From Isurus oxyrinchus (taxonomy: Eukaryota), in assembly GCA_026770705.1 (NCBI GenBank), contig JANJGN010000016.1:48856001-48920000 (forward strand): a DNA stretch of 64,000 nt, given 5' to 3'. The position numbers and the translations under genes are program-made. The notes under the pieces are model-generated. The model had not been told where the DNA came from. It saw nothing but the letters and a program-made list of their open reading frames with translations, and searched no databases. Position 1 is the first letter of the stretch. Every line of letters begins with the position of its first letter. Shown piece by piece: positions 6,661 through 64,000 of the stretch.

Positions 6661-6874
6661 CCCATGCACCCACCTTTAGCCCAAGGTACGTGGCAGTGCA
6701 GCTTTTGAAGCCAAGACAATGCAGACCAAGTTACGCTTGTGTTTCCTGTTTACAATTATATCCAGTTTATATTTTGTAGACTTGGAGATTTAGAAAGGAC
6801 ATTTTTAGAACAACAAAATTTTAGTATAAGTAACTTGATATGTACGGAAATTAAATAAGAACACATTTAATGTT

Positions 6875-8553
6875 TTTTATTCTTTCATGGGATCTGGAGG
6901 TTGCAGGCTAGGCCAGCATTAATTGCCCATCCCTACTTTCCCTTGAGAAGGTGGTGATGAGCCGCTTCTTCAGTGGCTGCAGTCTGAGGTGTACGTGCAC
7001 CCACAGTGTTGCTAGGGAGGGAGTTGCAGGATTTTGACCCAGTGACAGTGAAGGAATAGGACTTCTTGCCCCAAGTCAGGAAGTATGTAACTTGAAGGGG
7101 AACTTGCAAGGGATGATATTCCCAAGTGATAGAGGTCATGGGTTTGGAAGGTGCTATTGAAGGAGCCTTACGGAGTTGCTGCAGTGCATCTTGCAGAAGG
7201 TAATGCACCGGTGGTGGGTGGAGTGTTTAAGGTGGTGTAAGGGGTGCTGATCAAACTGACTGCTTTGTCCTGGATGGTGTTAAACTTCTCGAGTGTTTTT
7301 GGAACTGCATTCACCCAGGCAAGTGGAAAATATTCTATCAAAGTATTCTATCTGACTTGTGCTTTGTAAATGGTGGACATGCCTTGGGGAGGCAGGAAGC
7401 CAGTTACTCACTACAGAATTCCCAGCCTCTGACCTGCTGTTGTAGCCACAGTATTCATGCCTGGTCAATGTTAATCCCCCAGGATGTTAATGGTGGGGAA
7501 TTCGCCAATAGTAATGTCATTGAATGTCAAGAGGAGGTGGTTGGATTTTCTCATGTTGGAGATGGCTATTGCCTAGCACTTATATTGCATGAATGTTACT
7601 TGCCAGCCCAAGCCTGAATGTTGTCCAGTCTTCCTCGATGAGGACACAGATTGCTTTGATATCTGAGGACTTTTAAATGGGATTGAATGCTCTGCAATCA
7701 TCATTGAATGTCCCTGCATCTGACCATGTGATGGAGGGAAGGTCATTGATGAAGTAGTTGAAGATGGTTGAGCCGAGAACACTGGCCTGTGAAACTCTGC
7801 AGCAATGTTGAGGGATTGAGATGATTGGCCTCCAACAACCGCAACCACCTTCCTTTGTGGTAGGTGTGTCTAAAATCAAAGGGGAGTTTTCCCCCGATTC
7901 CCATTGACCTCAATTTCACCAGGGCTGCTTGGTGCCACATCATGTAAAATGCTGTCAAGAACAGTCACACTCTCATCACCTCTGGAATTCTACTCTTTTG
8001 CCACTGTTTGAAACAAAGCTATAATGAGGCCTGGAGTAGAGTGGCATGGTGGAACCCAAGGTTATTCCTGAGTATGTGCCACTTCACAGCACTGTCGACT
8101 ACGGCTTCCATTACTTTGGTTGAGAGTAGACTGATGGGACTGTAATTGGGTCAACTGGGCAACATGTGCCTTTGTTGTTAGTTCTTGCAGTTGCCAGGTG
8201 GACCGTCTGACTTTATTATTTGACTTTCCTGTAGCTATTTAATATAACCAAGTGGCTTGCTCGGCCATTTCAGAGGGCACTAGAGTCAACCATATTGCCG
8301 TGGTCTGAAATTACACACAGGCAAGACTGGGAAAGGACAGCAGATTTCCTTCCCTGAATGGCATTAGTGACTAGATGGCTTTTAACGATAGTCTAATAGT
8401 TTCATGATCATACTGATATTAGTTTTTTATTCAAAATTTATTGAGTTTGAATTCCTCAGCTGTTGTGGAAGGATTCGAACTCATGTCTCTGGAATATTGG
8501 CCCAGGCTTCCAGATTACTAGTCCAGTAACGTTACCATTATGCTATCATTCCC
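6875..8553 (-). mobile_element. LINE family A copy with a large internal deletion (junction ~8160) that retains the tRNA-derived 5' head
   Basis: RT fragment ASVLGSTIFNYFINDLPS...FNDDC. A box TAGCATAATGG (8535-8545, -) and B box GAGTTCGAATCC (8471-8482, -). 8165-8553 is collinear with 54100-54488. Confidence 0.85.
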
Positions 8554-11939: not shown

Positions 11940-12612
11940 CAGTTCAGTTATCATTGACCAGAAACTGAGCTGGATTAGCCATATAAATACTGTGTCTTCA
12001 AGAGCAGATCAGAGGCTGGGAATCTTGTGACGAATAACTCACCTCCTGACTCCCCAAAGCCTGTCCACCATCTACAAGGTACAAGTTAAAAGTGTGATGG
12101 AATACTTTGCACCTGCCTGGATGAGTGCAACTCCCACAACACTCAAGAAGCTTGATATCATTGAGGACAAAGCAGCCTGCTTCATTGACACCACGTCCAC
12201 ATTTACTCTCTCCACCACTGATGGACAGTGGCAGCAGTGTATACCATCTACAGGATGCACTGCAAGACTTTACCAAGGCTCCTTAGACAGCACCTTCCAA
12301 GCCCATGACCACTACCACCTAGAAGGACATGGGCAGCCAATAGATGGGAGCACCGTGACCTGGAAGTTCGCCTCCAAGTCACTCACCATCCAGACTTGGA
12401 AATATACCACTGTTCCTTCACTGTTGTTGGGTCAAAATCCTGAAACTCCCTTCCTATCTGCACTGTGGGCATACCTACACCACATGGACTGCAGCAGTTC
12501 AAGAAGGCAGCTCATCACCACCACCACCACCTCAAGGGCAACTAGGGATGGGCAATATATGCTGGCCTAGCTAGTGAAGCTCACATCCTGTAAATGAAAT
12601 GAATAAAAAAAA
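11940..12612 (+). mobile_element. LINE family A 3' fragment
   Basis: MMEYFAPAWMSATPTTLKKLDIIEDKAACFI; ends gctcacatcctgtaaatgaaatgaataaaaaaaa. Confidence 0.85.
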
Positions 12613-13320: not shown

Positions 13321-14980
13321 TACTAATTAAAAGCACCATATAAATACAAGTTGTTACTTTGGTGAAACAGCATGTGTTCAAACTCATGAGCAACACCATA
13401 GAAGACCTTGTAATATTAAAAGTCCTATTTATTAGCAGACACTTCCTACAAGAGTCGCCCTTTTCTTGTCCATTCCCTGATGTTACTTCTATCATACCTG
13501 TCTCATGCTCGACTGACATGATTGAATGCTGAAATAATGGGTTCTCTTTAACTCACTTTGGATTATTTTTCAGTGTGCTATTAAGGCCTACTACACATGT
13601 TCACATATGTATGTTTTCACATATTAAGTGGGCAATTTTAACCCTACCCAGCTGTCGGAAAACTGGAGGATGGGCAGTTAAAATGCCCCGGTTTACTTAA
13701 TTACCAGAAAGCAGCATAGATATGATTTTAACAGATGTATTAGGCCCCGAGAGTAATTTTAATTTCGGCATGAACGAGAAAGCAATTTTGGAAGCTTACA
13801 ACCAATGCATCCACTATCTCTGCAACCACTTCTTTTAAGACCCTTGGATGCAGGCCATCAGGTCCAGGGGTCTAGTCAGTCTTTAGCCCCATTAGTTTTC
13901 CCAGTAGTTTTTCTCTAATGGTAGTGATTGTTTGCTTTCCTCTCTCCGTTTGTCCCTTGATTTTCCACTATTCTTGGGATGCTTTTGGTATCATCTACAG
14001 TGAAGACAGATACAAAATACTTGTGCAAAGTCCCTGCCATTTCTTTGTTTCCCATTATTAATTCCCCAGTCTCATCTTCTAAGGGGCGACCACTTACTTT
14101 AGCTGCTCCTTTTTGTATAATGTAGAAGTTCTTCCTGTCTGTTTCTACATTTCTTCTAGTTTACTCTCATTCTAATTTCTCCATCTGATTTTTTTTTTTA
14201 GTTACCCTTTGCCGGTTTCTAAAATTTTCCCAATTTTCTGGCCTACCACTAATTTTCACAGAATTATGCACCTTTTCATTCAATTTGATACCACCTTTAA
14301 CTCCCTTAGTTAGCCAAGGACAGTGCACCCTTGTGGAAGAGCCTTTCTTAATGGAATATATATTTGTTGAGAGTTATGAAATAGCATATTAAATGTCTGT
14401 CACTGCTTCTCCACTGTCAACTTTTTAACTTGCTTTCCCTGCCTACTTTGGCCAGCTCTGGCTTCATATCTTTGTAATTGCCCGTACGTAAGCTGAGGAC
14501 ACTGGTTTTAGCCCCATGTTTCTCATTTTTAAATTGGATGTGAAATTCACGTTATGATCACTGTTCCCCACAGGACTCCCAAACTAAAAGTTATATCCCT
14601 AAGACATATGAATCATGAAATTGCATATTCATAACTATGACATCATTAATTGATCCATACTCATTGCACATTACTAGCTATAATTACTAGTTGATTCCTT
14701 GGTTGGTTCCATAATGTATTGTTGTAAGAAACTTCTGAATGCACTGTATGAACTCATCGTCAAGGCTACCTTTGTCAATTTGGTCCAATCTTTATGTCGA
14801 TTAAAATTGCAATATCTTTCTTATAAGCCCCATTATTTCTTGATTTATATTCTGTCCTACAGTATAGCTATAATTAGGTGCCTATATACTGCTCCACTGC
14901 TATTTCTTATCTCCACCCAAATTGATTCTATATCTTTGAAAAAGCTCAGCAGGTCTGGCAACATCGGCGGAGAAGAAAAG

Positions 14981-15019
14981 AGTTGACGTTTCGAGTCTTC
15001 ACGACCCTTCAACAGAACT
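14981..15019 (-). ncRNA. Minimal type I hammerhead-like ribozyme motif in PLE pseudo-LTR
   Basis: - strand AGUU CUGUUGA A GGGUC gugaa GACUC GAAA CGUC AACU: stem I AGUU/AACU, stem II GGGUC/GACUC, GUC cleavage triplet. Confidence 0.7.
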
Positions 15020-17042: not shown

Positions 17043-17081
17043 AGTTCTGTTAAAGAGTCATGAGGACTCGAAACATCAACT
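17043..17081 (+). ncRNA. Degenerate hammerhead motif in PLE pseudo-LTR
   Basis: AGUU CUGUUAA A GAGUC augag GACUC GAAA CAUC AACU; G8 and the stem III palindrome are mutated. Confidence 0.5.
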
Positions 17082-25689: not shown

Positions 25690-27300
25690 ATAGAACCATA
25701 ACATCATAGAATAGTGTAGCTGTTTGGCCCATCAAGTCTGTGCTGGCTCTTACAAAGAATAACTTAGTTAATTCTGCTCTTTCCCCATATTCCAGCCATA
25801 TTTTGCTCCAATTATTTTTAACCTGTTCCCTGTTGAAAGCTACTGTTGAATCTATCACCACCTTTTCAGTGCATTCCAAATCCCTCTTGTCACCTCTGAC
25901 TGTTTTGTCAATCACCTTAAATCTGTGCTGTATGGATAGGAACATTCGAAGCAAGAGCAGGAGTAGGCCATTTGGCCCTTCAAGCCTGCTCTGACATTCA
26001 GTAAGATCATTGCTGCTCTAATTGAAGCCTCAAATTCACATTTCCACCTACCCCTGATAATCTTTGACTCCTTTGTTAGTCTAGAATCTATCTACCTCTG
26101 CCTTAAAATTACTTCATGTCTCCACTGCTCTTTGGGGAAGAGTCCCAAAGACTCATAACCCTCAGAGAAAAAATTCTCCTCATCTTCATGGGAGACCCCT
26201 TATAGTTAAACTGTGTCTTCTAGTTCTAGTCTCCCACACAAGGGGAAACACCCTTTCAGCACCCACCTTGTCAAGTCCCCTCAGGACCTTATATGTTTCA
26301 ATAAGATCACCTCTCATTCTCCTAAATGCTATTGGATGCAGGCCCAGCTTTTGCTCATAAGATAATTCCCCCATCCCAGATATCATTCAAGTGAACCTGC
26401 TTTGAACTGCTTCTAACGTAATTATATTCTTATTTGAATAAGATGTTCAAAACTTTACACAATACTCTTGATGTGGTCTGACCAAGGCCCTGTACAACTG
26501 CAGTAAAACTTCCTTACTTTCCAAAATTCCATTCCTTTTACAATAAATGTCTACGTTCCATTTGCCTTCCTAATAATTTGCTGTACCTGCATACTAACTT
26601 TGTAATTCATGTACCAGGGCACCCAGACCCCTCTGTAATACAGAGGGCTGCAATATTTCTCGATTTTAAATAATATGCTGCCTTTCTATTCTTCCTGCCA
26701 AAGTGGATAATTTCACATTTTCCCACATTATACTCCCATCTGCCAAATTTTTGCCCATCACTTAATCTATTTATATCCCTTTGCAGATTTCTCTTCATAG
26801 CTTACTTTCCTACCTATCTTTGTATCATCAGCAATTTTAGCAACCATACCTTCGGCCCCTTCATCTAAGTCATTGATACAAATTGTAAATAGTTTGTAAA
26901 TAGTTAAGGCCTCCATACGCTAATCCCTGTGGCACTCCACTTGTCACATCTTGCCAACTGGAAAATGACCTATTTATGCCTACTCTCTGTTTCCTATTGG
27001 CTAACCAATCCTCTATCCATGTTAACATGTACCCTTTACACCATGAGCTCTACTTAGGGGGTTGACCCATTATCCAGGCTCTCTCTATTTAGTCCATCTG
27101 AATCTTTCATTATTTTAAATACTTCCAACAAATCTCCTCTTAACCTCCTCTGTTCTAAGGAGAACAACCCTAGCTTCTCCAGTCAATTAATATAACTATA
27201 ATTCCTCATTTCTAGAAACATTCTAACAAACCTCTCCTGTATTGTCTCAAGTCTTCATGCCCTTTCTAAAGTGTGTTGCCCAGAATTTGGCACAATATTG
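25690..27300 (-). mobile_element. Nested CR1 LINE 3' fragments (one copy at ~25935-27050 inside another)
   Basis: RRMRGDLIETYKVLRGLDKV and LQRDINRLSD..YNVGKCEIIHFGRKN; two CR1 tails at ~25690 and ~25940. Confidence 0.8.
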
Positions 27301-32382: not shown

Positions 32383-33590
32383 TTTTTTTATTCATTCATG
32401 GGATGTGGGCTTCGCTGGCTGGGCCAGCATTTATTGCCCATCCCTAGATGCCCTTGAGAAGGTGGTGGTGAGCTGCCTCCTTGAACCCACTGCAGTCCAT
32501 GTGTTGTAGGTATACCCACACTGCTGTTAGGAAAGGAGTTCCAGGTTTTTGACCTAGTGACAGTGAAAGAACGGCAATATATTTCCAAGTCAGGATGATG
32601 AATGACTTGGAGGGGAACTTCCAGGTGGTGGTGTTCCCATCTATCTGCTGTCCTTGTCCTTCTAGTTGGTAGTGATTGTGAGTTTGGAAGGTGCTGTCTA
32701 AGGAGCCTTGGTGAATTCCTGCAGTGCATCTTGTAGATGGTACACACTGTTGCTACTGTGCGTCGGTGGTGGAAGGAACAAATGTTTGTGGACGTGATGC
32801 CAATCAAGCAGACTGCTTTGTCCTAGACGGTATCCAGCTTCTTCAGTGTTGTAGGAGCCGTTCTCATCCAGGCAAATGGAGGGTATTCCATCACACTCCT
32901 GACTTGTGCCTTGTGGATAGTGGACAGGCTTTGGAGAGTCAGGAGGTGAGTTACTCATTACATGATTCCTAGCCTCTGACCTGCTTTTGTAGCCACTGTA
33001 TTTATATGGCTAGTCCAGTTCAGTTTCTGGTTAATGGTAACCCCCAGGATGTTGATAGTGGGGGATTCAATGATGGTAATGCCAATGAGCATCAAGGGGT
33101 GATGGTTGGACTCTCTCTTGTTGGAGATGGTCATTGCCTGACCAGTGGTGCAAATGTTACTTGCCACTTGTCAGCCCAAGCCTGGACATTGTCCAGGTCT
33201 TGCTGCATTTGGACATGGACTGCTTCAGTACCTGAGGAGTTGCGAATGGCGCTGAACGTTGCGCAATCATCAGTGAACATCCCCACTTCTGACCTTATGA
33301 AGGAAGGAAGGTCATTGATGAAGCAGCTGAAGATGGTTGGGCCTGGGACTCTACCCTGAGGAACTCCTGCAGTGATGTCCTGGAGCTGGGGTGACTGACC
33401 TCCAACAACCACAACCATCTTTCTTTATGCTAGGTATGACTCCAACCAGTGGAGAATTTTCCCCCGATTCCCATTGGCTCTAGTTTTGCTAGGGTTCCTT
33501 GATGCCACACTCGGTTAAATGCTGCCTTGATGTCAAGGACAGTCACTCTCACCTCACCCTGGGATTCAGCTCTTTTGTCCATGTTTTCTG
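32383..33590 (-). mobile_element. LINE family A, 5'-truncated, well preserved RT and 3' end
   Basis: VLDIKAAFNRVWHQG; AGVPQGRVPGPTIFSCFINDLPS..MFTDDC..DLDNVQAWADKWQ; tail ccatgaatgaataaaaaaa. Confidence 0.92.
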
Positions 33591-37230: not shown

Positions 37231-37411
37231 CATGTCTGTGATTCCTTCAACATCTTAGCATAGACTCAATTTCATTTCACTGCCATTTCAGTAAAATGTA
37301 GTTCACCATTTCTGGGTTCAGCAACCCAATCTATTATCCTGTAAAAGGATGTTAGGAAATCTAGTTCCTTCCTTTATTGAAGTTTACATGGTTACCCAGT
37401 AAACACCAGTG

Positions 37412-38545
37412 ATAAAAACAAAAAAACTGCAGATGCTGGAAATACAAGACAAAAACAGAATTACCTGGAAAAACGCAGCAGGTCTGGCAGCATCGGCGGA
37501 GAAGAAAAGAATTGACGTTTCGAGTCCTCATGACCCTTCGACAGAACTTGATTTCGAGTCCAAGAAAGAGTTGAAATATAAGCTGGTTTAAGGTGTGTGT
37601 GGGGGGGGCGGAGAGATAGAGAGAGAGAGGTGGGGGTGGGGTGAGGTTGTATGGACAAACAAGCAGTGATAGAAGCAGATCATCAAAAGATGTCAACGAC
37701 AATACTACAATAGAACACATAGGTGTTAAAGTTAAAGTTGGTGATATTATCTAAACGAATGTGCTAATTAAGAATGGATGGTAGGGCACTCAAGGTATAG
37801 CTCTAGTGGGGGTGTTTTTTATTTTTTTTTATATAATGGAAATAGGTGGGAAAAGGAAAATCTTTATAATTTATTGGAAAAAAAAGGATTAAAAGGAAGG
37901 GGGAAACAGAAAGGGCGTGGGGATGGGGGAGGGAGCTCACGACCTAAAGTTGTTGAATTCAATATTCAGTCCAGAAGGCTGTAAGGTGCCTAGTCGGAAG
38001 ATGAGGTGTTGTTCCTCCAGTTTGCGTTGGGCTTCACTGGAACAATGCAGCAAGCCAAGGACAGACATGTGGGCAAGAGAGCAGGGTGGAGTGTTAAAAT
38101 GGCAAGCGACAGGGAGGTTTGGGTCATTCTTGCGGACAGACCGCAGGTGTTCTGCAAAGCGGTCACCCAGTTTACGTTTGGTCTCTCCAATGTAGAGGAG
38201 ACCACATTGGGAGCAACGAATGCAGTAGACTAAGTTGGGGGAAATGCAAGTGAAATGCTGCTTCACTTGAAAGCAGGGTTTGGGCCCTTGGACGGTGAGG
38301 AGAGAGGAAGTGAAGGGGCAGGTGTTGCATATTTTGCATGGGCATGGGGTGGTGCCATAGGTGGGGGTTGAGGAGTAGGGGGTGATGGAGAAGTGGACCA
38401 GGGTGTCCCGGAGGGAGCGATCCCTACGGAATGCTGATAAGGGGGGTGAAGGGAAGATGTGTTTGGTGATGGCATCATGCTGGAGTTGGCGGAAATGGCG
38501 GAGGATGATCCTTTGAATGCGGAGGCTGGTTGGGTGATAAGTGAG
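37412..38545 (-). mobile_element. Young 5'-truncated Neptune-type PLE (linker, stop-free GIY-YIG domain, pseudo-LTR)
   Basis: LTYHPTSLRIQRIILRHF..CPCKICNTC..NLVYCIRCSQCGLLYIGETKRKLGDRFAEH..GLNIEFNNFRS*; highly similar to 16083-17180. Confidence 0.93.
37510..37548 (-). ncRNA. Minimal hammerhead-like motif in PLE pseudo-LTR
   Basis: - strand AGUU CUGUCGA A GGGUC augag GACUC GAAA CGUC AAUU. Confidence 0.68.
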
Positions 38546-40379
38546 TAGCGCCCAATCCGAGTTTTTACGTGGCTCATCCACGTTGTGTCTTAACTGCAGG
38601 AAACCACAGCCAAGGGCGGTGAAAAGGTCTCCGCCGAGGGCCGCGAATCAGGTGGAAACGGAGCTCTAGGTCGCTTGGTCTTGATTTTCAGCCTGATAAA
38701 ATTTGGCAAGCGTGGATGTTTGTCACTTAGGTAGCAATGAAACCAGGAAGCCGGTCACATGGTTAGTGGTCCGAAGACCTACCCTGAATTACATCATCTG
38801 ATGTGTGTTACTTTATTAATTATTTATTTACTTTAACAAGGAAAAAGCCGTAATTTAGTTAATATAATCGTAATTAACATTAAGTAACCACTACCAAATA
38901 GTTAAACAAGGTAAAATAACTAATCAAAATGCCAGACAACTTAGGTTCACTTAACCCTTATTTACAAAAAGTCCACCTTACCCACCCACCGGGGATCAGG
39001 TGTTAGGCCTCCCACCCTGGAGATATACAAACACCAGTGTTCATCTTATGGTACTGCATCATCTCACCTGACTTCACAGTTATAATTTCAATTATTGTTT
39101 GCTGGTAATCTGTAAATTTCAGTTTGGATATACTTTTATCAGAATGAAGTGGGAATGCAGAGATCAATATATTCAAAATAGCTCCCATTTATTGTGGCTA
39201 AACTATTGATGATACAGAGGCTTGACCTAAATTTAATTGGCTTTTAAGGTTGCCAAAGAAGTGGGAAATCAACTCAGCAAATTTCCTCCAGATAATATTT
39301 TTAATTGGAATTATTTCTTTGTTAATATTCAAATATTATCTTCTTTACTTCACTCAGATGTTCTTTCTGTCACTGACCTTTGTTGGTGAAGAGCTGTGCC
39401 ATGTGCTACTTTGCACTGCTTCACATGAAGTGAGAGAGAGAGTGCCTCATGGTGACTAATTCTTGAAATTACCATGTGTTCTCTCCCCCCCACCCTCCCC
39501 CGCCAACAGCCTCACCTCACCCCCATATGTTTCAGATTGCAAATGGACCATGCTGATAATCACAGATGCAAAGCTGCATCATGCTACTGTATAGGATGTG
39601 TTGAAGCTCTAATAAGTGATAATTGCAATCTTGGTTTATATAATGCTTTGTTAATGCCATCTTATGCAGTTGGAAATACTGGGATTATGGCTAATATTTA
39701 CCTTGACTGCTGATGAGTACACATTCATGGTTATAGTGAACAATTTAGAAAACTTTGTTTCTATTTATTTTTAACAAACTGATTATAGGCCAGGCCTGGT
39801 TAATTTATACTTTTTTGATCAGGTACGCATCATCTTCACTTACAATGGAACAACCTTATTTTTTGTTCTTACTTAGTTAACATTAAAATTGTTTCCCCTT
39901 TTAAGAGTCAGTTGAAAATAACTAATTGCTAAATTAGTTATTGCTTCTGAAACAGTATTGCAGTTTTGATCCAGTGTGTAATGTTGAGTAGTGAGCTAAG
40001 TAATTTAATAAAGCTTAGCTGACTATTAATCAACCTGAAGCTCCTTTGTCCAGTGTGAACCCTGCTGAAATGTTTACTGTGACCTGCAGAAAAAGGAACT
40101 TCAGTGGAAGGAAAGAAGGGATAACAAAATCAGGCATGAAATCATCTGGCAAAAAGTGCACTGCAAGCAAACTAAATTGATTATAGTTGAGAAGAGAAAG
40201 AAAGAATAACAAAATAGAAACATTGTTATTTGAATATTCATGATGCTATGCATAAAACATCCCTGATTTTGGGCATCTGTCCCTCATTTTCACATGCTGT
40301 GCCTCAGATTTTCAGTTTGCAAATTGAGGTATAGGTGGTACTGCCCCATGGTTTTGTTCTTTCAATAATTGTTCCTTGG

Positions 40380-42632: not shown

Positions 42633-43865
42633 AAAAAAAAAAATTCTTTCACAGGATATAGGTATCATTGGCTAGGTCACCATTAATTACCCATCCCTAA
42701 CTGCCCTTGAGAAGGAGGTGATGAACTGTTACCTTGAGCCTCTGCGGTGTAGGTGCATCCACAATGCCGTAAGACAGGGGGTTCCATGATTTTGACCTAG
42801 TAACAGTGAAGGAACGACAATATAGTTTCAAGTCAGGATGGTGTGTGACTTGAAGGAGAACTCACAGATGGTTGTGTTCCCATGCATCTGCTGCCTCTTT
42901 GTCCTACATGGTAGGAGTCGTGGGTTGGAAGGTGCTGTCGAAGCGATGGTGAGTTGCTGCAGTGCATCTTGTATATGGTACACACTGCTGCCACAGTGTG
43001 TTGGCACTAGAGGGAATTGCTGTTTAAGGTGGTGGATGGAGCACCAATCAAGCAGGCTGCTTTGACTTGGATGCTGTTGAGTTCCTTGAGTGTATTTGGA
43101 GCTGCACTCATCCAGGCAAGTGGAGAGTATTCCATCACACTCCTTACTTGTGGCTTGTAAATTGCGGACAAGCTTTGAGGAGTCGGGAGGTGAGTTACTC
43201 GTTGCAGAATTCCCAGCCTCTGTTATATGGCTGGTCTATTTCAATTTCTTGTCAGTGGTTCCCACCAGGATGTTGTTAGTGGCAGATTCAGAATTTGGTA
43301 ATGCCATTTAATGTCAAAATGAGATGATTAGATCCTGTCTTGTTGGAGATGGTCACTGCCTGGCACTTATGTGGCGTGGATGTTACTTGCCATTTATTAG
43401 CCCTAGATTGAATGTTGTCCAGATCTTGCTGACTGCTTCAATGTCTGAGAAACTGTAAATGGTGCTGAACATTGTGCAATCATCAGTGAACATCCCCATT
43501 TCTGATCATGATGGAGAGAAGATAATTGATGAAGCAACTAAAGATGATTGGGCCTAGGACACTACCCTGAGGAACTCCTGCAGCAATGTCCAGGGACTAT
43601 CATAATTGACCTCCAGTATACACAACCATCTTTCTCTGTGCAAGGCATGACTAACCAGCAGAGAGTCCCCCCCCCACCCCCAGATTTCCATTTACTTCAG
43701 TTTTGCTTAGGCTCCTTGATGCCTCACGGTCATTGCTGCCTTAATGTCAAGGATAGTCACCCTCACCTCCCCTCTGTAGCTCAGCTCTTTTGCCCATTTT
43801 TTGGATCAAGGCTGTAATGAAGTCAGGAGCTGAGTGGCCCTGGTGGAGCCCAAATTGTGTGTCAG
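42633..43865 (-). mobile_element. LINE family A, 5'-truncated
   Basis: TQFGLHQGHSAPDFITALIQ; collinear with 51293-52540; same 3' end as other copies. Confidence 0.88.
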
Positions 43866-46800
43866 TTAAATAGTATACTAAACAAATAGAGTGAGATTGC
43901 ACTAGGTGGTTCATAGAGTAAGACACTGGCACAGATTTGATGGGCCAAACGGTCTGTTTCTGTGCTGCAGTATTAAATGATTTATCTCCACTCAATGCAA
44001 AAATTGTTTGCTAATGTATTTTTAGTTTCCTTTTGAATGTGAAATAGCATTCAATTTTGAATGCCTTTGCAATAGTTTGACCTGAAAAAATGGCATTTAC
44101 TTTTTAAACTCTTGAGGACTGCATGCATTTAAAAATAATGACATTTTTCATGATCTTGGCCACCATTAGGAACACACACTTGTTTCAATATTTTCCTTTG
44201 TTTTGTCATAAACATGGTTTAATAATATCATTTTAGAAATTAAAATGTTGGCAAACACTTATAAGATTCTGAAATTCTTAAGTCTCTAATGGTCAACTGA
44301 AATTTTGATTATTGTGTATTTAACTAAGGCCCCCATATCCTGATTAATGTGGCATTGTAAGGATCTTAGAGTGGCATGTCATGACTAATTATTTTACTGA
44401 TGTATTTTATTGGTAGCTAGTGTTTCATAAGTAAGGGGCATCTCCTGATGTGAAAATCAAAATCCACTTTGTACCAATTCCTCAGTGAAAGCTTAAATGC
44501 TAAGTTGAAGTTAAAGCATTTACATGCCATTCAACTGAATCTGAAATCTGAGAAATCTAAGCCACTTATGATTACTGTTTCACCTGTTGATTAAATTAAC
44601 AAATTTTGAGTTTTTAAAAAATGTGAATTATTGTAGTGTGACTATTACTGTAATAATCCTGTTTTGCGATATGCACTTGACAGATTGTAATAGTGCTAAT
44701 TGAACAGATTAATTCACACTTGCTTCATTCTATTCAAAGAGAGAATCGGTAGCTTGTTTTGCTTTTGACCAGATGGTACTGATGAACACCTACTGTGCAC
44801 TTTAAGTGCTTACTAGAATTACAAAGACAGATCTGTGTTGAGCTCAAAATGGTTGAGAAAGCTGCATTGAATAGATTTTGTGCAACTAAATTAATTCTGG
44901 TGGACCATTACACATTGAGCTGTCTTTTCAAAGCTCTGAGCTCCTTGTTTGCTCTGCAGCAATGAAAAAGTGAAAGGCAGATTACAGCAAACAGAAATAA
45001 AAGTGCTATGAAAGGGAGAAGAAGCCTTAAAGCCTTTTATATGGAATTTGTTTTAAGTGCATTATTTGTGTGCATAAATGGGAAGCCATTTCAGATTTGT
45101 TTTTAAGTGCACTATTTGAGATTTATGAATATGAAAACAACAGCAACATTTAGTAACAGTTGGTTGAATTTATGTCCATAAACTAGAACATCTTTATTTT
45201 AATTTTAGCTCTCAATTTATTCCCATTTCAAACTACTTTTTAAGCAATTTTATAGCTCATACATGCAAATAAATAGAATATATTAAATTTGCTTCCAGCT
45301 TACTAAATTTAAAATCTACTCTTGATTTTGTGCCTTGACCAGAAGTATGTAGGTTTTGGTGCTAAATATAAAATATTGTAGCCTCCCCCCCTCCCCGCTG
45401 TATTACCCTGCCAACCATCCCCATTATAGCAACTTGTCGAAATTTGCTAAAGCTCCCCATGTAGGGAAATTCGGGGATACACTTTAGCTTAGTTTAGGGT
45501 TTGCACTTGAATTTCCTAGCTTTGAACCTAGCACTGTACTGTAATTGTTGGCAGTCTCGATGATGTATTTAGAAGGCAATAAATCTAATGTAAGGAAAAT
45601 ATGTGCTAAACCTTGGACAAAAGACTGACATTGACTGTCTTACCCCTTATCATTGTCTTTTCCAGAGCACAATTGGGAAGTATGTGATATACTAAGGGGT
45701 GGAGAGTGAGTTGGAGTGGTGACCTACCAAGAGAGGGGTAGAATTGGAGAAAAGTTGATTTGTGTACCAGTACTTGCTTATGCTTAAGTTCATGATTACA
45801 TACACTTTTGGTGATTACATGAACACATCAAGATGGGGACTCAAATTTGTCTTCCTGTTTCAAGTCCTTTAATCAAGCATTACAATCAACAGGGTTAAAG
45901 GATTTGGTATTTTACATCAAGAAAATATTCTTCACAGCATAATTTAAAATTAATACTGCCTTAAGCAAGATTTTCCAAAAGGATTATGTTTTAAATAAAC
46001 ATCTCTGAATTTGTCAGTTTCATCTCGTGCTCTTGATAGGGTGATTCCAGATGTTCATTGTTTCAAATATAAATATTTAAATTTTGTGGTATGTTCAGTA
46101 TTGTTTAGCATTTGCAAAATTGTTAAATGAAAATCTATCTCAATCAAACAGTGTTATAATTAAGCACAACTTTATTGTAAAACCAGGGAAAAATATATTA
46201 CAATAATGGGAACTATTGTGCACATAGAGGTCACACTAATCTAAATGGCGGTTTAACAGCTTGTTCATTTGTTTGGTGATAAATACTGCAAAAAACCCTA
46301 GCTGCAATTTAAATGAAGAATAGTAGTCTTGATACTGAGTTTCCTGTAATTTATTGATCCAGAGCAGCAAAATAGTGATTAGCAAGTACAGTCCCACCAA
46401 GCATTTAAACATTTTTTCTGACTGTTTGACCTATTCACATTTAATATGAGCAACAGTAAGCTCAGTGCAAATGTTTGCAAATTGTGGCAGAAATTATGCC
46501 TGGTCGAGTTGCAGGTCCGTGACTAGACGGGAGAGACTGAGGATTTTGTTGGGGTTTTTACAGCTGCAAAAAAAAAAGCATGTGTTCTTAGAATGGCAAT
46601 CTTTGTTTAGTTTTGACACTGACTTTCTTTTTCATACCCAGCAATGGATTAGGTACAACCAAGATGAGATTCATTTATGTTACCCCATTGCAGCTGTTCA
46701 GACATAGGCACAAAAGCTTAAGAACAGCAAGCATAGTTCACACAAGAATCTTTGTATGGAGGTCTCCTTGTTTGCTTTGGATGGCTCTTCTGAGCACTGC

Positions 46801-51292: not shown

Positions 51293-54200
51293 CTTTATTC
51301 ATTTGTGGGATGTGGGCAACGCTGGCTAGGACAGCATTTATTGCCCATCCCTAGTTGCTCTTGAGAAAGTGGTGGGCAGCTGCCTTCTTGAACCGCTGCA
51401 GTCCCTGTGGTGTTCGGGAGGGAGTTCCAGGATTTTGATCCAGTGACAGTGAAGGAACGGTGATATATTTCCAAGTTAGGATGGTGAAGGGCTTGGAGTG
51501 GAGCTCCAGGTGGTGGTGTTCCCATGTATCTGCTGCCCTTGATCTTCTAGATGGCAGCAGTCATGGACTTGGAAGGCTCTTCCCAAGGAATCTTGGTGGG
51601 TTTCTGCAGTGCATCTTGTAGATGGTACACTACTGCCACTGTGCATTGGTGGTGGAGGAAGTGAATGTTTGTGGATGGGGTGCCAATCAAGCGGGCTGCT
51701 TTGTCCTGGTTTGTGTCAAGTGTTTGAGTATTGTTGGAGCAGCACTCATCCAGGCAAGTGGAGAGTATTCCATCACACTCCTGACTTGTGCCTTGTAGAT
51801 AGTAGACAGGCTTTAGGGAGTCAGGTGGTGAGTTACTCGTTGCAGGACTCCTAGCCTCTGACCTGCTTTTCTAACCACAGTATTTATACGGCTAGTCCAG
51901 TTCAGTTTCTGGTCAATGGCAACCCCCAGGATGTTGATAGTGGGGGGATTCAGCGATGGTAATTCCATTGAATGTCAAGGGGCAATGATTAGGTTAACTC
52001 TTGTTGGACGTGGTCATTGCCTGGCACTTGTGTAGCGTGAAAGTTACTTTCCACATGTCAGCCCAAGCCTGGATGTTGTCCGGGTCTTCCTACATTTGGA
52101 CATGGACTGTTTCAGTATCTGAGGAGTTGCGAATGATGCTGAACATTGCACAATCATCAGCGAACATCCCCACTTCTGACCTTATAATGGAAGGTAGGTC
52201 ATTGATGAAGCAGCTAAAGATGGTTGGGGCCAGAACATTACCCTGAGGAACTCCTGCAATGAGATCCTGGAACTGAGATGATTGACCTCCAAGAACCACA
52301 AACATCTTCCTTTGCACTCGAAATGACTCCATCCAGCGGAGCGTTTTCCCCCGATTCCAATTGACTCCAGTTTTGCTAGGGCTTCTTGATGCCACACTCA
52401 GTCAAATGCTGCCTTAATGTCAAGGGCAGTCACTCTCATCTCACCTCTGGAGTTCTGCTCTTCTGTCCATGTTTGAACCAAGGCTGTACTGAGGTCAGAA
52501 ACTGACTGACCCTGGTGGAACCCAAACTGAGTTTCAGTGAGCAGGTTATTGCTAAGCAAGTGCCACTTGATAGTACAGTTGATGACCGCTTCCATCACTT
52601 TACCGATGATTGAGAGTAGACTGATGGAGCAGTAATTGGCCAGATTGGACTTGCCCTGCTTTTTGTGTACAGGACATACCTGGGCAATTTTCCACAATAG
52701 TGGGTAGATGCCAGTGTTGTAGCTGTACTGAAACAGCTTGGCGAGGGGTGTGGCAATTTCTGGAGCACAAGCCTATAGTGCTATTGACAAAATACTGTCT
52801 TGGCCTCTTGTCTTTGCAGTATTCTGTGCCTTTAGCCATTTCTTGATATCACGTGGAGCGGTTCGAATTGGCTGAAAACTGGCACCAGTGATGCTGGGGA
52901 CCTCTGGAGGAGATCGAGATGGATCATCCACTCCGTACTCCTGGCCAATAATTGTTGCAAATGCTTCAGCCTTGCCTTTTGCACTGCTGTGCTGGGCTCC
53001 TCCATCATTGAGGATGGGGATACCAGTGGAGCCTCCTCCTCGAGAGAATTGTTTAATTGTCCACCATCATTTATGACTGGATGTGGCAGGACAGCAGAAC
53101 TTAGATCTGATCCATTGGTTGTGGGATCGCTTAGCTCTGTCTATCACTTTCTGCTTATGCTGTTTGACACGCAAGTAATCCTATGTTGTAGCTTCTTCAC
53201 CAGGTTGAGACCTAATTTTTAGGCATGCCTGGTGCTGCTCCTGGAATGCCCTCCTGCACTCTTCATTGAGCCAGGGTTGATCCCCTGGCTTGGTAGCATT
53301 CAAAGTGGGGGATGCACCGCTCCATGAGGTTACAGATTGTGGTTAGGTTCTGCTGCTGCTGATGGCCCACAGCACCTCACGGGTGCCCTGTATTGAATTG
53401 CTAGATCTGTTTGAAATCTATCCCATTTAGCACAGTGACAGTGCCACACAACCCAATGTGAAGATGGCACTTCATCTCCACAAGGACTGTGCAGTGATCA
53501 CTCCTATCAATACTATTGTGGGCAGATGCATCTGTAGCAGGCAGGTTGGTGAAGGTGAGGTTAAATATATTTTTCCCTCTTGTTGAATCTCTTACCACCT
53601 GACTCAGTCCAGCAGCTATGTTATTTAGGATTCACCAGCTCGGTCAGTAGTGATGCTCACGACCCACTCTTGGTGATGGACATTGAAGAACCCCCACCCA
53701 GTGTTCACTCTTGCCACCCTCAGTTCTTCCTCCAAGTGGTATTCAACATGGAGAAGCACTGATTCGTCAGCTGAGGGGGTGGGGTGGTACGTGATAATCG
53801 GCAGGAGGTTTTCTTGCCCATGTTTGACTTGATGCCATAGACTTAATGGGCTGATGTTGAGGACTCCCAGGGCAACACCCTCCCGACTGTACACCACGGT
53901 GCTGCCACCTCTGCTGGGTCTGTTCTTTGGTGAGACAGGATATTCCCAGGGATGGTGATGGTGATGCCTGGGGCATTATCTGTAAGGTATGATTCCGTGA
54001 GTATGACTGTGTCAGGCTGTTGCTTGGCTAGTCTGTGAGACAGCTCTCCCAAGCCCACCGTTGTTAATAAGGAGGACTGTGTAGGGCCGAGGGGACTGGG
54101 TTTGCCACTGTTGTTTCCGGTGCCTAGATTGATGCCAGGTGGTAGGTCTGGTTTCATTCCTTTTTATTGACTTCTTAACAGCTTGATACAACTGAGTGGC

Positions 54201-54488
54201 CATTTTGGAGGACATTTAACAGTCAACCACGTTACTGCACCTGTGGAGTAGCATGTTGGACAGACTAGGTGACGGTGGCTGATTTCCTTCCTTAAAGAGC
54301 TTATTGAACCAGATGAGTTTTTAGGACAATCGACAATGCTTTCATGGTCATCATTAGACTTTTAATTTCTGATTTTTTTATTGAATTCAAATTCCACTAT
54401 TTGCTGTGGTGGGATTCAAACCTGGGCCCCCAGAGCTTTACCCTGGGTCTCTGGATCACCAGTCCATTGACAATACCGCTGCCTCCTC
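51293..54488 (-). mobile_element. Apparently full-length (~3.2 kb) LINE family A: tRNA-derived head, single disrupted APE-RT ORF, 3' tail
   Basis: ATG at 54157: MKPD..VGLGELSHRLAKQQPDTVILTESYL (APE N-terminus); SDH (DRSDHC); WKIAQVCPVHKK..ALDIKAAFD; GVPQGNVLAPTIFSCFINDL..MFADDC; B box GGTTTGAATCCC at 54411-54422 (-). Confidence 0.92.
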
Positions 54489-54491
54489 TTG

Positions 54492-57400
54492 AGGCCGGAA
54501 TTTTCCACCTCCATTGGTGTCAGGTGTCATGGCAGGTGCGAACGGGCAATATGGTGAGAAGGCAAAAATCGGTTTCAGAACATCGTGAAACCATTTTGTG
54601 ATCGTCCGCTCCACCTGTCAGTGGCAGGCTGCCTTTCCTGCCATGGCAAGCCTGGAATATCATTTTAATAAATCTGCATATAATTATAAGCCTAGCTCAC
54701 CAGAACCAACTCCCTCCACAATGGACCACGTTTTCATGTCGGTGGGAAAACATGCTGGCCAAAACACATCTTGACCAAGTGTGACATGCAGAAGCCGGGA
54801 CTTAGCGTTAGAGCCTTGCTCACATCACAGACATCCGAGGAGCAGAAGATGCCAGAGTCCTGGAGGACACGTGCATCAAATGCTGGGTGGATTTATAGGA
54901 ACATGGCTCCTCCATGAAGTAGCTCACGGAAGGTGGAAGGTCACCGTTGATGTCTGGGGTCTGCTTCGGTGCATCAGGGTCTTGGTGCTATGGATGATTG
55001 TTGAGGGGGTGGAGAGGAAGGTCTCGGTTCCTCTGTGAGAGGAAGGTGTGCTGGGGGGAGGGCAATGATGGTGTCGGGGGTTGAGGTTGGGAGGGAAAAC
55101 GATGCTGTTGACATGGTTGGGTTGGGAGTATGGGGGGAGGAGCATGTAATGGGAGAATGCAGCAACTGAGGTGGTAGGTGTAAGGGGCGAGGAAGGAGTA
55201 AGTGAAGGAATTTGGAGGGGGCAAGATTCTGGAGGGGAAGAAGGAGTCTCGGGGGTTGGTGGGGGGAGGCAGGAGCAGATGGAATAAGGGGCAGAGGGGA
55301 TGTCCAGGTTGACATGTAAGGGAGGGATCTGTGGAGTTGATGATTGCCTCCTGGGGAGCAAATGGAGGGTGGGTGTGGTAGGAGGGCAAAGTGAGCTGGG
55401 AGGGTGAGGGCGCAATGGAACAGTAGAAAGGACGGTGAGGGCAGTTGGTGGGGACTCTGAGGCAGACACGGACCCTGAGGTGGGAAAGAGGAGGTTTAAG
55501 AGGCCAATGTGGATGGGATGAGGTTCTCGGGAAGATCGGGAATGTACACATTCACCTGAACATCCTGGATAGAAAAGGGTTCTGGTTGGTTGGTTACGGT
55601 GGGGAGATGGAAAGTAAGGCCAGGACGGATCAACAGTGATGGGAGAAAGGACGTGGGTGACTGGGGGAGGAGAAATGACAGGGAAGGTGGAAACATACTT
55701 TACAATCACCATGCTTATGAAATTGAAAGTGAGAGGAGCCTTGTGTTAGGTGGGAACCGGTGCTGCTTGGGAGTTCAATCAGTGGGTGGGCAGACACACA
55801 GAACAGTTCAGATGGACAACTGAAAGAGAACCCCAGCGGGCAGCATTGCAAATGCTCGGGACATTGAGATGAGTGTGATGGAGGAAGGATCCATGTGTGT
55901 GGGAGAATTCTTGTACGAGGGTCCGAAAAGTCCTGCCCCACGCGCACGGACATAGACACACACACATAGACACACACCCCTCTAAAATCGCTTCTGGTCC
56001 GGCTGCGTGCACCTGAACAGTTGGTGGGGTGGGATGTAGGGGGATTGCTTGCAAAGTCTAAATGAAGCTGAAAGACATCATTTCATATTACTTAGTGACA
56101 GTGAATATATTTACAGATTATAAAGTGACAAAATGTGTTCACCCATGCAGCCATGTGATCAGAAATTCTTAACTTCCCAGGCCTACCACTTCTAAGTGCT
56201 GCCCTGACATCTGCAGCAGGGGTGGAGACAGCTTGTGCAATGGTTTTCTCTGATGACCTTGGCATGGGCCCTCTGGAGAGCTGAGGTCTTGAGGGCCACA
56301 GCTTGCTTTGGCTGTCCTCCTGTGGGCCAGCTGCTTCCTCTGCGGTGACAAAGGATGAGGTTGAGGGGGTCACAGGCAAAGGGAACTGGGAGGGAGAGGA
56401 TAGCTTTTGAGATTGCTAAGTGGATGACCCAGGTGTGAGAACTACTGCTCCTCCTCCCTTTGGATGCCTGAGGGTTCCAGCCTGGCTTCTTGAGGGGGAG
56501 GAGCACCTAGAGGGATGTCAAAGTGCCCCATTACCCCCTCACTTTGCCACTACAGGAACTCGCCCATTGCTGCCGTGATGGATTGCAAGACTGCACATAT
56601 CTCCACGTTCTGCTGGACCAGGGTCTGCATGACATCTACCACTTCATCAGAGAGCAGGTGGATGCACTCCTCTGACTTGCGTGCCACTCTGTTGAGGGTT
56701 TCCACAGCTCTGCATGATGTTCCACTGCCTTCTGCTGATTCTCCACGATGAGTTAGAAGACCGAATCCAAAGGCTCGTCATCTGACTCTGACTTCATAGA
56801 TGTCTCTTCCCCAGCAGCCCTCTGAGTGTCGGGGAGCTTGGCTGAACCTGCTTCCTCCTCTGTTGCAGACGTATGTCTGTGCGGTGACCACCAGCTTGTG
56901 AACCCGAGCCTGCTCTAGATCTAGGTTACACCGAAGTGCGTCCCTGTGCTGATGGAGGGTGTGGGTAAGCACTGTAGCAGGATTTCCAGGCTGCTTATTT
57001 CCAGCTCTTCAGTGGAGGAGTTGTCCTCTTCGTTGGGAGTGCGGACCTGGATGGAGCTGAGGGACTGGCTGGCTGAGGGTGTTGGTCGCTTGGCAGAGTT
57101 CCCTGTGAACAAAAGTAGAGATAATGAGTGTAAGGCAGCAGAATCAAAAGCAGGAGGGATAGAGCACTCACAGTTGCGCTGAGAGAGAGATGATGTGGTG
57201 CAGGATCCTCATGTGGGTATTTGCCACCAGCCTCACTGTCACTACAGGCATGCTCCATGTCCTTACCAATCAGCATGATGGCACGCTCCTCAAAGTGAGT
57301 GAGGGGCCCAATGTGGGCCACTCCACCTCTGGCCTGGGATCTCTTCCTGCTGCTGTGAGCCAGCTTCTCCTGCATGAAAACAGATGGAGAGTGTGAGCAT

Positions 57401-58107
57401 GATGCATGGCATTGTGTGGAATGTTTGTGTGGTGAATGGGGCCATAGATGGGATGAGTATGTGAGCTCCAGAGGATATGATGGAGATGTGTGGGTGTGTG
57501 AGAGAGTTAGTGGTGCTGACTCTTGAGGTGTGAGGTGGATGTGTGATGGATTTGAATGTGTGAGTTGAGAGTGATGAGAAGAGTGACTTACTCTGCTGGA
57601 ACGGATGGGAGCATTCATCTTCCTCCTGCACTGGATGGCTGTCCTCTTTTGTAGGGCATGGGCACTAACCACTGCTGCCACTGTGTCCCATGTTGGATTG
57701 ATGACTTTGCTTGCTCGTCTTCCCCCAGAGCCGGGGGGAATACCTTGCGGCCGGCCTCTACTGCGTCCAGTAGGTGCTTGAAGGAGGTGTTGCTAAATCT
57801 GGGGGCAGTATGTTTCCTCCCTTTGGCAGCCATCAGTTCCCAGCACCTTCCTATCCCTTGAGTGCTAGCTCTGTGCAGGGGCGGCCTTTGAATATGGTGC
57901 CCGGTTTACTGAAGGCCTTAGGTGACGGTGGGCAGGTGAATTGGAGGCTGTGACGCCAGCAATTCAGCATGCTTCCTGGGAATACATAATTAATGAGGTG
58001 GGAATGGAAAGATATGGCGTGAAAAGCCGCAATTGTGGCCAACAGGTAAAATGTCCTTTTTCTCACCCGCTACCACTCTTAGTGCAAATCTGAGGCAATT
58101 CCACCCC
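54492..58107 (-). mobile_element. PIF/Harbinger-type DNA transposon derivative carrying the Myb/SANT gene; no recognisable transposase
   Basis: Imperfect TIRs AGGCCGGAATT (54492) / AATTCCACCCC (58107); contains a Myb/SANT-like gene; TSD not evident. Confidence 0.7.
56170..57833 (-). pseudogene. Harbinger-associated Myb/SANT (trihelix-like) DNA-binding gene, 3 exons, frameshifted
   Basis: Exon 1 57833-57592: MAAKGRKHTAPRFSNTSFKHLLDAVEAGRKVF..(frameshift)..MAAVVSAHALQKRTAIQCRRKMN, donor GTAAGT. Exon 2 57369-57172: EKLAHSSRKRSQARGG..PLTHFEER, CAG acceptor and GTGAGT donor. Exon 3 from 57102 is low-complexity and ends near ALRSGRPGKLR. Confidence 0.78.
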
Positions 58108-60672: not shown

Positions 60673-61759
60673 TTTTTTAATATAGGTTCCAGGAAAAAAT
60701 TCAGGTGGTTAGCAGATTAGTAGGAATAAGGTTAAGGGAACAGAATGTGGGCCTTGTAGACAAGATGAGCTTGGAAAGAGCATTGAGGGGATTGGGATGA
60801 AGCAAGAAAGATGCAAGTTCATGCTAGTAGTGCAGGGGCAAACTTTAAGAGGAAGTTTGAACTGGTTTGTTAGGGGGAAGGAAATCACAGGTAGCTGGTC
60901 AGATGGCCTCAACCTTAGTGACAAAGAAGTCAATTAGCTCCTCTTACTTGTTTGAGTTGGGACTGGAAGAGACGGGGAAAAGGATTTAAGAAGACAGTTG
61001 CCCTCTTGACATTGCAGGATGATCCCGGAATAGTGAGCAGTTTGGGCAGACAAAACAGGGCCCAGAAGCACTTTATATATTTCAACCAGATATGTAGATG
61101 TTAAAGTTTATGTCCCTTGAACTTATGGCAGTAGAGATGAGGTTTGTACCCAGGGGAATGGTCATGGTGGGATGACTAATGTTTTTATTGGGGGCCAGGG
61201 CATCAGAGGTGGAGGTGAGGGTATGGTTGAGCAGATTAGCTACAGAAATTTCATGATGAATGGAGGGGCTACAGGCTAGACAGTTGGAATTTTAAGGGTA
61301 CAATTGCTAATGAATTGGGAGAGCATTGTTTTTCTGGGGTGGACACAAAAGGATGTGGGTTCAGATGGCAAAGGGGGATATTTGTGGAGGGCAATACAAG
61401 GATGTGATCAAAAATTACCTTACCTGACGCTATGGAAACAGTGAGGCCATGTGAGCTGGCAAGTTGAAGCTGTGAATAAGGATTGAGAAGTTTTTTCTGG
61501 AGGGAGAGATTAAGGGAGGATAGAAGGTTTGTGAATTCAAAGGAGAGAAAGCATAATAAATTGAGATAAGCATTTGAAGTCACTGGGGATGAGAAGCCAC
61601 TTAGTGCAGAGGCTGAGGGAGGAAAGCAGTGGGTATATCTCAATGAGAGAATCTTTAGGATAAAGACAAAACAAAACTGCGGATGCTGGAAATCCAAAAC
61701 AAAAACAGAATTACCTGGAAAAACTCAGCAGGTCTGGCAGCATCGGCGGAGAAGAAAAG

Positions 61760-61798
61760 AGTTGACGTTTCGAGTCTTCATGACCCTTCGACAGAACT
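61760..61798 (-). ncRNA. Minimal hammerhead-like motif
   Basis: - strand AGUU CUGUCGA A GGGUC augaa GACUC GAAA CGUC AACU. Confidence 0.7.
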
Positions 61799-62679
61799 TG
61801 ATTTCGAGTCCAGGAAAGAGTTGAAATATAAGCTGGTTTAAGGTGTGTGTGTGTGGGGGGGGGGGGGGGGGGGGGGGAGAGACAGAGGTGCTTGTGTAGA
61901 CAAACAAGCAGTGATAGAAGCAGATCATCAAAAGATGTCAGTGACAATGGGACAAAAGAACACATAGGTGTTAAAGTTGGTGATATTATCTAAACGAATG
62001 TGCTAATTAAGAATGGATGGTAGGGCACTCAAGGTACAGCTCTAGTGGGGGTGGGGGGAGCATAAAAGATTTTAAAATATTTAAAAATAATGGAAATAGG
62101 TGGGAAAAGAAAAATCTATAAAATTTATAGGGGAAAAAAAGGGGGAAAAAAGGGGGGAAACAGAAAGGGGGTGGGGATAGGGGAGGGAGCTCACGACCTA
62201 AAGTTATTGAATTCAATATTCAGACCGGCCTTCCGGTCTGAATATTGAATTCAATAACTTTAGGTCGTGAGCTCCCTCCCCTATCCCCACCCCCTTTCTG
62301 TTTCCCCCCTTTTTTTCCCCTTTTTTTTCCCTATAAATTTTATAGATTTTTCTTTTCCCACCTATTTCCATTATTTTTAAATATTTTAAAATCTTTTATG
62401 CTCCCCCCACCCCCACTAGAGCTGTACCTTGAGTGCCCTACCATCCATTCTTAATTAGCACATTCGTTTAGATAATATCACCAACTTTAACTTTAACACC
62501 TATGTGTTCTTTTGTCCCATTGTCACTGACATCTTTTGATGATCTGCTTCTATCACTGCTTGTTTGTCTACACAAGCACCTCTGTCTCTCTCTCTCTCTC
62601 TCCCCCACCCCCCCCCCCCCCCCCCACACACACACCTTAAACCAGCTTATATTTCAACTCTTTCCTGGACTCGAAATCA

Positions 62680-62718
62680 AGTTCTGTCGAAGGGTCATGA
62701 AGACTCGAAACGTCAACT
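62680..62718 (+). ncRNA. Minimal hammerhead-like motif
   Basis: AGUU CUGUCGA A GGGUC augaa GACUC GAAA CGUC AACU; predicted cleavage after C62714. Confidence 0.7.
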
Positions 62719-64000
62719 CTTTTCTTCTCCGCCGATGCTGCCAGACCTGCTGAGTTTTTCCAGGTAATTCTGTTTTTGTTTTGAATCTTTAGGGTACTTG
62801 GGCGGACAGTGGAGGATGAGGATTTTAAATAAGAGGGGAGTATGGAAACGATGGATAAGTGATTCTGCTATTTCATCATTGCTTCTATATTCATTGCAGG
62901 CAGGCAGAGAAAGTTCTAGCTGTCATTGCTGGTACCTGAAGTTTGACCCAGTTTTTTTTAGGGAGACACAGATGTGGCTGGTTAATCATTGCATAAATCA
63001 CATAATTGGTTGGATCATGGTGATTTGGGAATGAACACACTGTTTTTCAAAATTTGTTTTGAATCACATGTAACGGAAATAAAACTGTTAAAGGAAGATA
63101 TTCAGACAACTGAATAAAAGTACTCTAAACTTCAGCACTCCAAGCTTCCCCATAACTGTGAAATGGTGCGGAAATGTAGTTTTGATTGGTGAGCACATTT
63201 TTTTAAATGCTTCTAATGTTAAAAATCATTAAAATGAGTATTTGGATAAATGGAAAATGTCAATTCCTTCACCAGAGAAAGTGAAGTTTCTTGAAATAAA
63301 TTTGATGCTGGTCAGGAAGCTATGATAATGTTATTGGAATTTATTGTAAAATAGTAGTATCTGTGTCTATATGTGTGTGTGTGTGTGGGGGGGGCGGTGG
63401 GGGGGACTTGGAATTAAAGGCAGCTGGTCTGAAAACTTTGATGTATCAGAAGATAAGCTAGGTTTGAAATGTTGAATAGGTAAACATGGGGGAAGTTTTA
63501 GAATGTGAGGTAATGGGAACATCTGCATTTTTAAATAAACCAGACTAATTTGAATTCAAAAAGAGGGAGTAAAATGTTTTACCTAGTCAGGAGAAGTTAA
63601 GCAGTGTGTTTATTTTTCCCAAAGATTACTGGTAAAATTGGTATTGTGATAGATTTTATTATTAGAGAGGTGAAGTCCAAAGACATATTGAAACAATGGG
63701 AATTTGCATTCAATGGGGAAAATATGTATAAAGGAGTGAAGGCTGTGTGTAAGGATAGGCATTCTAAGATCTAACATGTGAAAAGCCTTTAGCATCTACG
63801 CCTCAAGTTGCTGTCCACAGAGTACTGAAGTTAAGGAAACTTACTTTGAATTGGATTGTTCAAGGTATCATGTTTCTTTGCCTGGGTTTTTAAAAATCTG
63901 TGTCTTACTGTTGCCTTATGGAGGTGTAACTGGGCGTCAGATTAATTAGGGGATTTAAAAGTTACTATAGTAGTAATTTATAGGCATTATATATGTGCTT

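Follow-up and report, generated by a model that had tools for sequence, protein, structure and literature searches.

A Zenon-type LINE of Isurus oxyrinchus with a head derived from tRNA and with its coding strand purged of T-runs: a candidate for transcription by Pol III

The LINE family described here, family A, combines a fixed tRNA-derived head, a single endonuclease-RT frame, a purge of runs that is specific to one strand and to T, and SINEs built from both of its ends. The counts reported below speak for selection against sense-strand T-runs. Family A starts precisely where a tRNA-derived head with A and B boxes starts, and for this reason we regard Pol III as the best explanation of these features; the head together with a terminator-free coding strand makes it likely that the full-length RNA is a Pol III product. 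Judging from these sequence features, it is probable that Pol III transcribes the full-length RNA and that an autonomous LINE is translated from that RNA. The fuller reading, which we hold to be probable by a shade less, is of a SINE with its own RT, which Pol III would transcribe from a tRNA promoter once captured and retained in sharks and rays, which would have had its ORF and phenylalanine content reshaped in avoidance of Pol III terminators, and which would be translated from uncapped RNA.

The family was met in a 64,000-nt stretch of Isurus oxyrinchus DNA (the window), whose relevant features are collected in Table 1. The original prediction held that the sense strand of the copy at 51300-54480 is almost free of T4 runs, and recounting bore this out: the + strand, which is antisense to the element, carries A4 at 52789 and 52875 only and no A5, along with 15 T4+ runs where roughly fifteen had been claimed. 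Sense T4 runs are likewise absent from the copies at 32383-33590 (sense -) and 11940-12612 (sense +), as had been stated, and the CR1 at 25935-27050 (sense -) holds 6 sense T4+ runs, the predicted figure having been about six. Taken singly, the T4 count of the window copy is no more than chance (2 against 5.75 expected under base shuffling, P = 0.073). Both of its T4 runs are missing from the family consensus and originated through C-to-T changes, and when the consensus was decayed by 12% in silico, the simulation yielded 1.8 sense T4 runs. The possibility that the copies at 42643 and 6873 represent separate older families was ruled out, because their genome-wide neighbours rebuild the same consensus.

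Table 1. Positions of family A copies and their parts in the window.
Feature	Position	Strand	Remark
Full-length decayed Zenon-type LINE (family A)	51296..54488	-	12% from 3284-nt consensus
tRNA-derived head (consensus 1-92)	54405..54488	-	8 nt gone, including half of the A box
B box (consensus 74-84)	54413..54423	-	two changes in window copy
Leader body, conserved	54190..54404	-	common to short SINE form; near-identical in shark and ray consensuses
Conserved ATG (consensus 348)	54155..54157	-	downstream of A-rich stretch
APE endonuclease and RT ORF	51351..54077	-	933 codons, open in consensus, broken in window copy
Sense T4 run	52789..52792	-	not in consensus; post-insertion C-to-T changes
Sense T4 run	52875..52878	-	not in consensus; one C-to-T change
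3′ tail, ~70 nt	51296..51365	-	stem-loop with AATAAA, then A tail; also in SINE form
Family A copy, 5′-truncated	32383..33590	-	92% to consensus; no sense T4
Family A copy, 5′-truncated	11947..12612	+	87% to consensus; no sense T4
Family A copy, 5′-truncated, more decayed	42643..43866	-	78% to consensus
Family A copy, 5′-truncated, more decayed	6873..8149	-	74%; head-bearing fragment at 8192-8547

A genome search with the 5′ 800 nt of the element returned 19,421 first-look candidates, of which 40 were scored. The first consensus was built from 38 fetched loci and the window copy (39 loci had been fetched), and the refined consensus, 3284 nt long, from 158 loci at a coverage of 32–126; full-length copies of the family lie 5–12% from it. 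The consensus runs from the tRNA-like head through a structured leader and the endonuclease-RT frame to a tail of 70 nt, which holds a stem-loop followed by the A run. Counted from the first endonuclease strand, the ORF comprises 933 stop-free codons, and in sister copies it is matched by Pfam RVT_1, Exo_endo_phos and Exo_endo_phos_2. Family A has one ORF with APE and RT, no ORF1 and a poly-A tail. Among 10 full-length copies we saw one plausible 9-nt target-site duplication and one doubtful 6-nt case, and a first metagenome scan and a viral scan returned no relatives of the family. Contigs from four sequencing runs, three of which are only presumed to be RNA, cover all 30 bins, a measure that is blind to polymerase, start, strand and expression level.

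On its sense strand, the consensus holds no T4 and six T3 runs, against 14 A4. The original prediction had inferred selection for Pol III read-through from the shortage of T4, and had proposed codon-shuffled controls; in the consensus ORF, this check gave 0 T4 against 2.2 expected (P = 0.074), which is not significant by itself, and base shuffling of the whole element gave 0 against 4.4 (P = 0.010). What stands of the prediction is selection on sense T-runs, as seen in T3 and TVTTT, and what does not is T4 alone under codon shuffling. The ORF has four T3 runs against 12.4 expected, a count as low as which arose in 0 of 2000 synonymous codon shuffles; the shuffling kept the element's own codon usage, and under it A, C and G runs were at expectation. 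TTT by itself is no terminator (PMC8466645), so this strongest statistic is an indirect one. The shortest working Pol III terminators are TTTT and TVTTT (PMC8466645), and the two patterns together number 0 on the sense strand of the whole 3284-nt consensus against 5.57 expected (P = 0.0008) and 0 in the ORF against 4.35 (P = 0.004), with 23 on the antisense strand; the combined pattern is post hoc, having been picked after the TNTTT count of zero and from PMC8466645. One 5-nt window contains 4 T, against 11.3 expected.

The same avoidance can be followed from site to site. At synonymous T/C sites, T was used in 145/317 isolated positions, in 44/141 where it makes TT, in 4/38 where it makes TTT and in 0/2 where it makes T4, and its use at sites that make a run of three or more (4/40) compared with isolated sites gives odds of 0.13 (p = 5e-6). 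The same test gave no effect for runs of C or G and a weak effect for runs of A (0.57, p = 0.043). Mutation bias fails to explain the gap, since A-to-T and G-to-T changes after insertion occur equally often at run-making and at other sites; C-to-T changes are somewhat rarer at run-making sites, both as raw rates (0.041–0.047 against 0.065) and in raw counts of frequent variants (1/88 run-making sites against 33/468 isolated ones). From these spectra we infer that the purge reflects selection on source lineages and not mutation.

Consensuses of CR1a, CR1b and a Penelope element, built in the same way from the same genome, agreed with the contrast to CR1 that had been predicted: CR1a has 9 and CR1b 7 T4 runs against 0 in family A, the Penelope consensus has 4, and terminator density in these controls is 4.9–8.3 per kb. 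CR1b mildly avoids T3 (26 against 34.8 expected, P = 0.004; context odds 0.50). Beyond this genome, we took 160 related loci from public contigs, kept the 120 that offered a distinct frame of at least 550 codons with an RT motif, and dropped 40; the 120 are 24–37% identical to family A, and not all of them are Zenon. Observed over expected T3 is 0.78–1.18 in their ORFs against 0.32 in family A, the lowest of the 121 LINE frames. Each of the 120 has at least one T4 and family A none, and the lowest terminator density among them is 1.7 per kb (locus L361) against zero. T-poor relatives (16.5–20% T) keep T3 near expectation (1.06 in L322, 0.82 in L361). L361, a single ORF at 33-2900 from another animal with 20% T, 2.2% Phe and 1 T4 against 3.9, whose 5′ end lies off the contig, is a candidate for either a second case or a composition control; as a relative that looks headless and yet is T-poor, it speaks against the Pol III reading.

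Phenylalanine makes up 1.8% of the family A protein, below 149 of 150 related proteins. The residues that are left sit where relatives also have them: 16 of 18 fall in conserved Phe columns, and family A keeps 16 of the 19 such columns in an alignment with 20 relatives. As a separate observation, LINE ORFs of animal type stand intact on many contigs (loci L362-L436) that are filed in bacterial or archaeal MAGs, a sign that these bins contain host DNA.

The head is a fixed part of the element and is conserved across sharks and rays. We take consensus 11-21 to be its A box and consensus 74-84 its B box. The Rfam tRNA model matched the head in one of five loci, a SINE copy (L091), with 24.6 bits (E 0.3) where the gathering score is 29; it gave no tRNA match on the window copy, and ARAGORN with default settings reported no tRNA across the window. 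With its threshold lowered, ARAGORN did match the head, a result that was discarded because unrelated loci then match everywhere too. The head is present in 112 alignments, of which 50 begin at consensus 1-4, including 31 at position 1. Searched for exactly, a 17-nt A-box pattern has 1715 matches in the genome and its reversed control has none. Twenty of these matches, drawn from the first 100 listed of the 1715 and chosen without regard to the ORF, comprised 10 that reach the ORF region, 6 of SINE form, 3 short heads and 1 fetched on the wrong side. Upstream of the 120 related ORFs, many of whose contigs have no 5′ end, an A/B-box pattern of our own design found no match. Head and body open all 7 elasmobranch Zenon consensuses of PMC13343379, in whose first 400 nt we saw no T4 by eye; in the same source, two hagfish Zenon entries do not open with the head, hagfish Zenon-1 has many T-runs, and the coelacanth row opens in low-confidence sequence.

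Two SINE forms join the first 292 or 315 nt of the LINE to its last ~70 nt (loci L074, L081, L088, L091, L093, L094, L443, L444, L448, L449, L451 and L457). At ~360–390 nt, this derivative is short and non-coding, and the 3284-nt element is not. Joints that skip ~2.9 kb are also present in contigs of other runs. A telomere-type repeat array was noticed shortly after one SINE-form copy, from L088:1872 onward. At the 3′ end, AATAAA is kept in 88 of 134 cases, and a further AATAAA lies at consensus 115. A T4+ run stands right before the A tail in 17/122 tails, against 0/94 at an internal AAT-A5 site and 89/1165 before background A-runs, the tail rate being about twice the local background; the consensus itself lacks this run. 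The tail T-runs showed no trend with age (8/46 younger against 5/47 older copies; L039 and L050 are near-duplicates). For T-runs of this kind before SINE tails, growth after insertion has been reported (PMC8466645), so they are only suggestive of the T+ SINE type.

If Pol III makes the full-length RNA, TFIIIC would bind the internal boxes, and each full-length copy would thus bring its own promoter. With a T4 or TVTTT anywhere in its 3.3 kb, the RNA would end short of the 3′ stem-loop that the RT would need, and master lineages would for this reason have lost their terminators, in part through avoidance of TTT codons and of Phe where it is dispensable. The transcript would be terminated by a T-run located at the 3′ end or past it and would then be A-tailed, as in T+ SINEs. 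The least certain step is a low level of translation from uncapped RNA, which would have to proceed without a cap or an in-frame AUG; ribosomes may enter internally, in the vicinity of the A-rich stretch and of ATG 348, with a -1 shift or re-initiation to follow. Neither the missing ORF1 nor the A tail points to Pol III, since both are general Zenon traits (PMC13343379).

Family A could instead be an ordinary Pol II LINE, in which the captured SINE head either acts as an internal promoter for Pol II or rides along as a passenger, and in which U-runs are avoided for other causes such as RNA stability, innate poly-U sensing or Pol II pausing. We consider this unlikely. Characterised LINEs are all treated as Pol II units (PMC10886601), and AATAAA with an A tail at the 3′ end would suit such a unit, although the hexamer occurs at consensus 115 too. 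The P value of 0.07 for T4 alone and the mild T3 avoidance of CR1b also sit well with it, but none of the 120 related ORFs approaches the purge, and Pol II poly(A) signals and splice donors, as far as a comparison of low power can tell, are not depleted in the ORF. Against a passenger head, the element starts at the tRNA 5′ end, and the same head drives the SINE form.

Twelve ATGs lie upstream of the endonuclease. The nearest in frame, ATG 293, is followed by TAG in 60/85 copies and by TAA six codons on in 33/85, and 8/85 copies have letters that remove both stops. ATG 348, conserved in the main consensuses of five species (rows of PMC13343379), opens a 35-codon frame that is one base off the long ORF and overlaps it, and the consensus has no frame-restoring indel between the two. 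These 12 upstream ATGs, with the in-frame ones closed by stops in most copies, make for a poor fit to cap-dependent scanning; the ORF might be started by internal entry with a -1 shift, by re-initiation or by a non-AUG start, all of which are options (PMC3894237). Translation of family A RNA may be cap-independent. To our knowledge, a translated 3.3-kb Pol III RNA has no established precedent.

Cap-independent translation would be unneeded if the labour were split, Pol III making the RNA that is copied and the protein coming from capped Pol II read-through transcripts in host units. This arrangement accounts equally well for the head and the terminator purge, and it could draw on an abundant family (the 19,421 first-look candidates found with the 5′ 800 nt) and on the coverage of 30 bins by RNA-library contigs. 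We nevertheless judge it quite unlikely, given that a trans-acting protein would exert only weak selection for an open 933-codon ORF in cis across sharks and rays, and that read-through RNA would still run into the 12 upstream ATGs. That the T4 shortage is chance or a by-product of T-poor (20%) composition agrees with the P values for T4 in the single copy (0.073) and the consensus (0.074), but is highly improbable and already largely refuted by T3 (4 against 12.4), by the 4-T-in-5-nt windows (1 against 11.3), by context odds of 0.13 at fixed own codon usage, and by relatives with 16.5–20% T that hold T3 near expectation (L322 1.06, L361 0.82).

On sequence likeness, we identify family A as the published elasmobranch Zenon LINE. 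CarCar_Zenon-1 is near-identical to it by eye over the first 400 nt, and the two agree in length (3288 against 3284 nt), in a single APE-RT ORF, in the lack of ORF1 and in the A tail (PMC13343379), in keeping with the description of Zenons there as ORF1-less elements with a poly-A tail. The main text of that paper contains neither ‘tRNA’ nor ‘Pol III’, and it does not discuss the head, the purge of terminators or the SINE that derives from the element; the family is thus published, and its tRNA head and terminator purge apparently are not. An initial guess of identity with SacSINE1/Deu was dropped, because by eye the leader body fails to match Deu, Meta or UCON3 in the alignments of PMC7245038, where only a ~10-nt stretch resembles the Deu start (supplement). 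In a quick RT tree, poorly resolved and with no named Zenon reference, family A stands apart from the CR1b of this genome, and its neighbours are mostly unnamed proteins, one from amphioxus and one from a moth among them.

Among known systems, R2 is a non-LTR element with a single ORF; it is transcribed by a polymerase that is not Pol II, and its uncapped RNA is translated without a conserved AUG. The proposed family A would resemble it in all of these; R2 differs in its Pol I co-transcription and ribozyme, its restriction-like endonuclease and its site specificity. The lepidopteran Zenon/Persaeus pair is alike in having a ~3.3-kb single-ORF Zenon and a short derivative of its 5′ and 3′ ends, but Persaeus is described as having no tRNA homology or Pol III promoter (PMC6740152), and the shark LINE and SINE forms carry both. 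T+ SINEs (B2, Dip, Ves) share the tRNA head, an AATAAA near the 3′ end and a variable pre-tail T-run, which in family A is found in some copies only; they are short, non-coding and non-autonomous, whereas family A holds a 2.8-kb ORF between head and tail, and unlike their 3′ end its consensus is without a terminator of its own (PMC8466645). Bov-tA and SINE2-1_ACar likewise join a tRNA head to LINE sequence but are non-coding (PMC4494074), and RTE-1_DAn is noted only as containing a tRNA-like sequence (PMC5786205). A search of the literature, from which most subscription papers and Repbase Reports were excluded, found no report of a Pol III-transcribed coding LINE.

By the working divide, LINEs are Pol II-transcribed, coding and autonomous, and SINEs are Pol III-transcribed, non-coding and dependent. 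If real, a LINE under the control of Pol III would break this rule and provide a natural multi-kilobase translated Pol III RNA, and translation of uncapped RNA in a vertebrate would become testable. It would also offer a direct route to the origin of a SINE, by one internal deletion of a tRNA-headed LINE. The polymerase has been reported to set the need for ORF1 (PMC2666806), and family A would be a natural test of that report.

Several neighbouring features of the window deserve mention. Penelope-like elements with RT and GIY-YIG-type frames lie at 14937-17182 and 37408-38647; they are ~95% like other genomic copies, and are therefore younger than family A. Over 1.1 kb, the segment at 61692-62786 shows a 95.7% match to its reverse complement and consists of inverted Penelope-like ends. 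The region 55000-58000 is GC-rich and has several long frames on the - strand, of which the one at 56995-57792 presumably resembles a Myb/SANT-like transposon protein; a similar frame is also present in L091.
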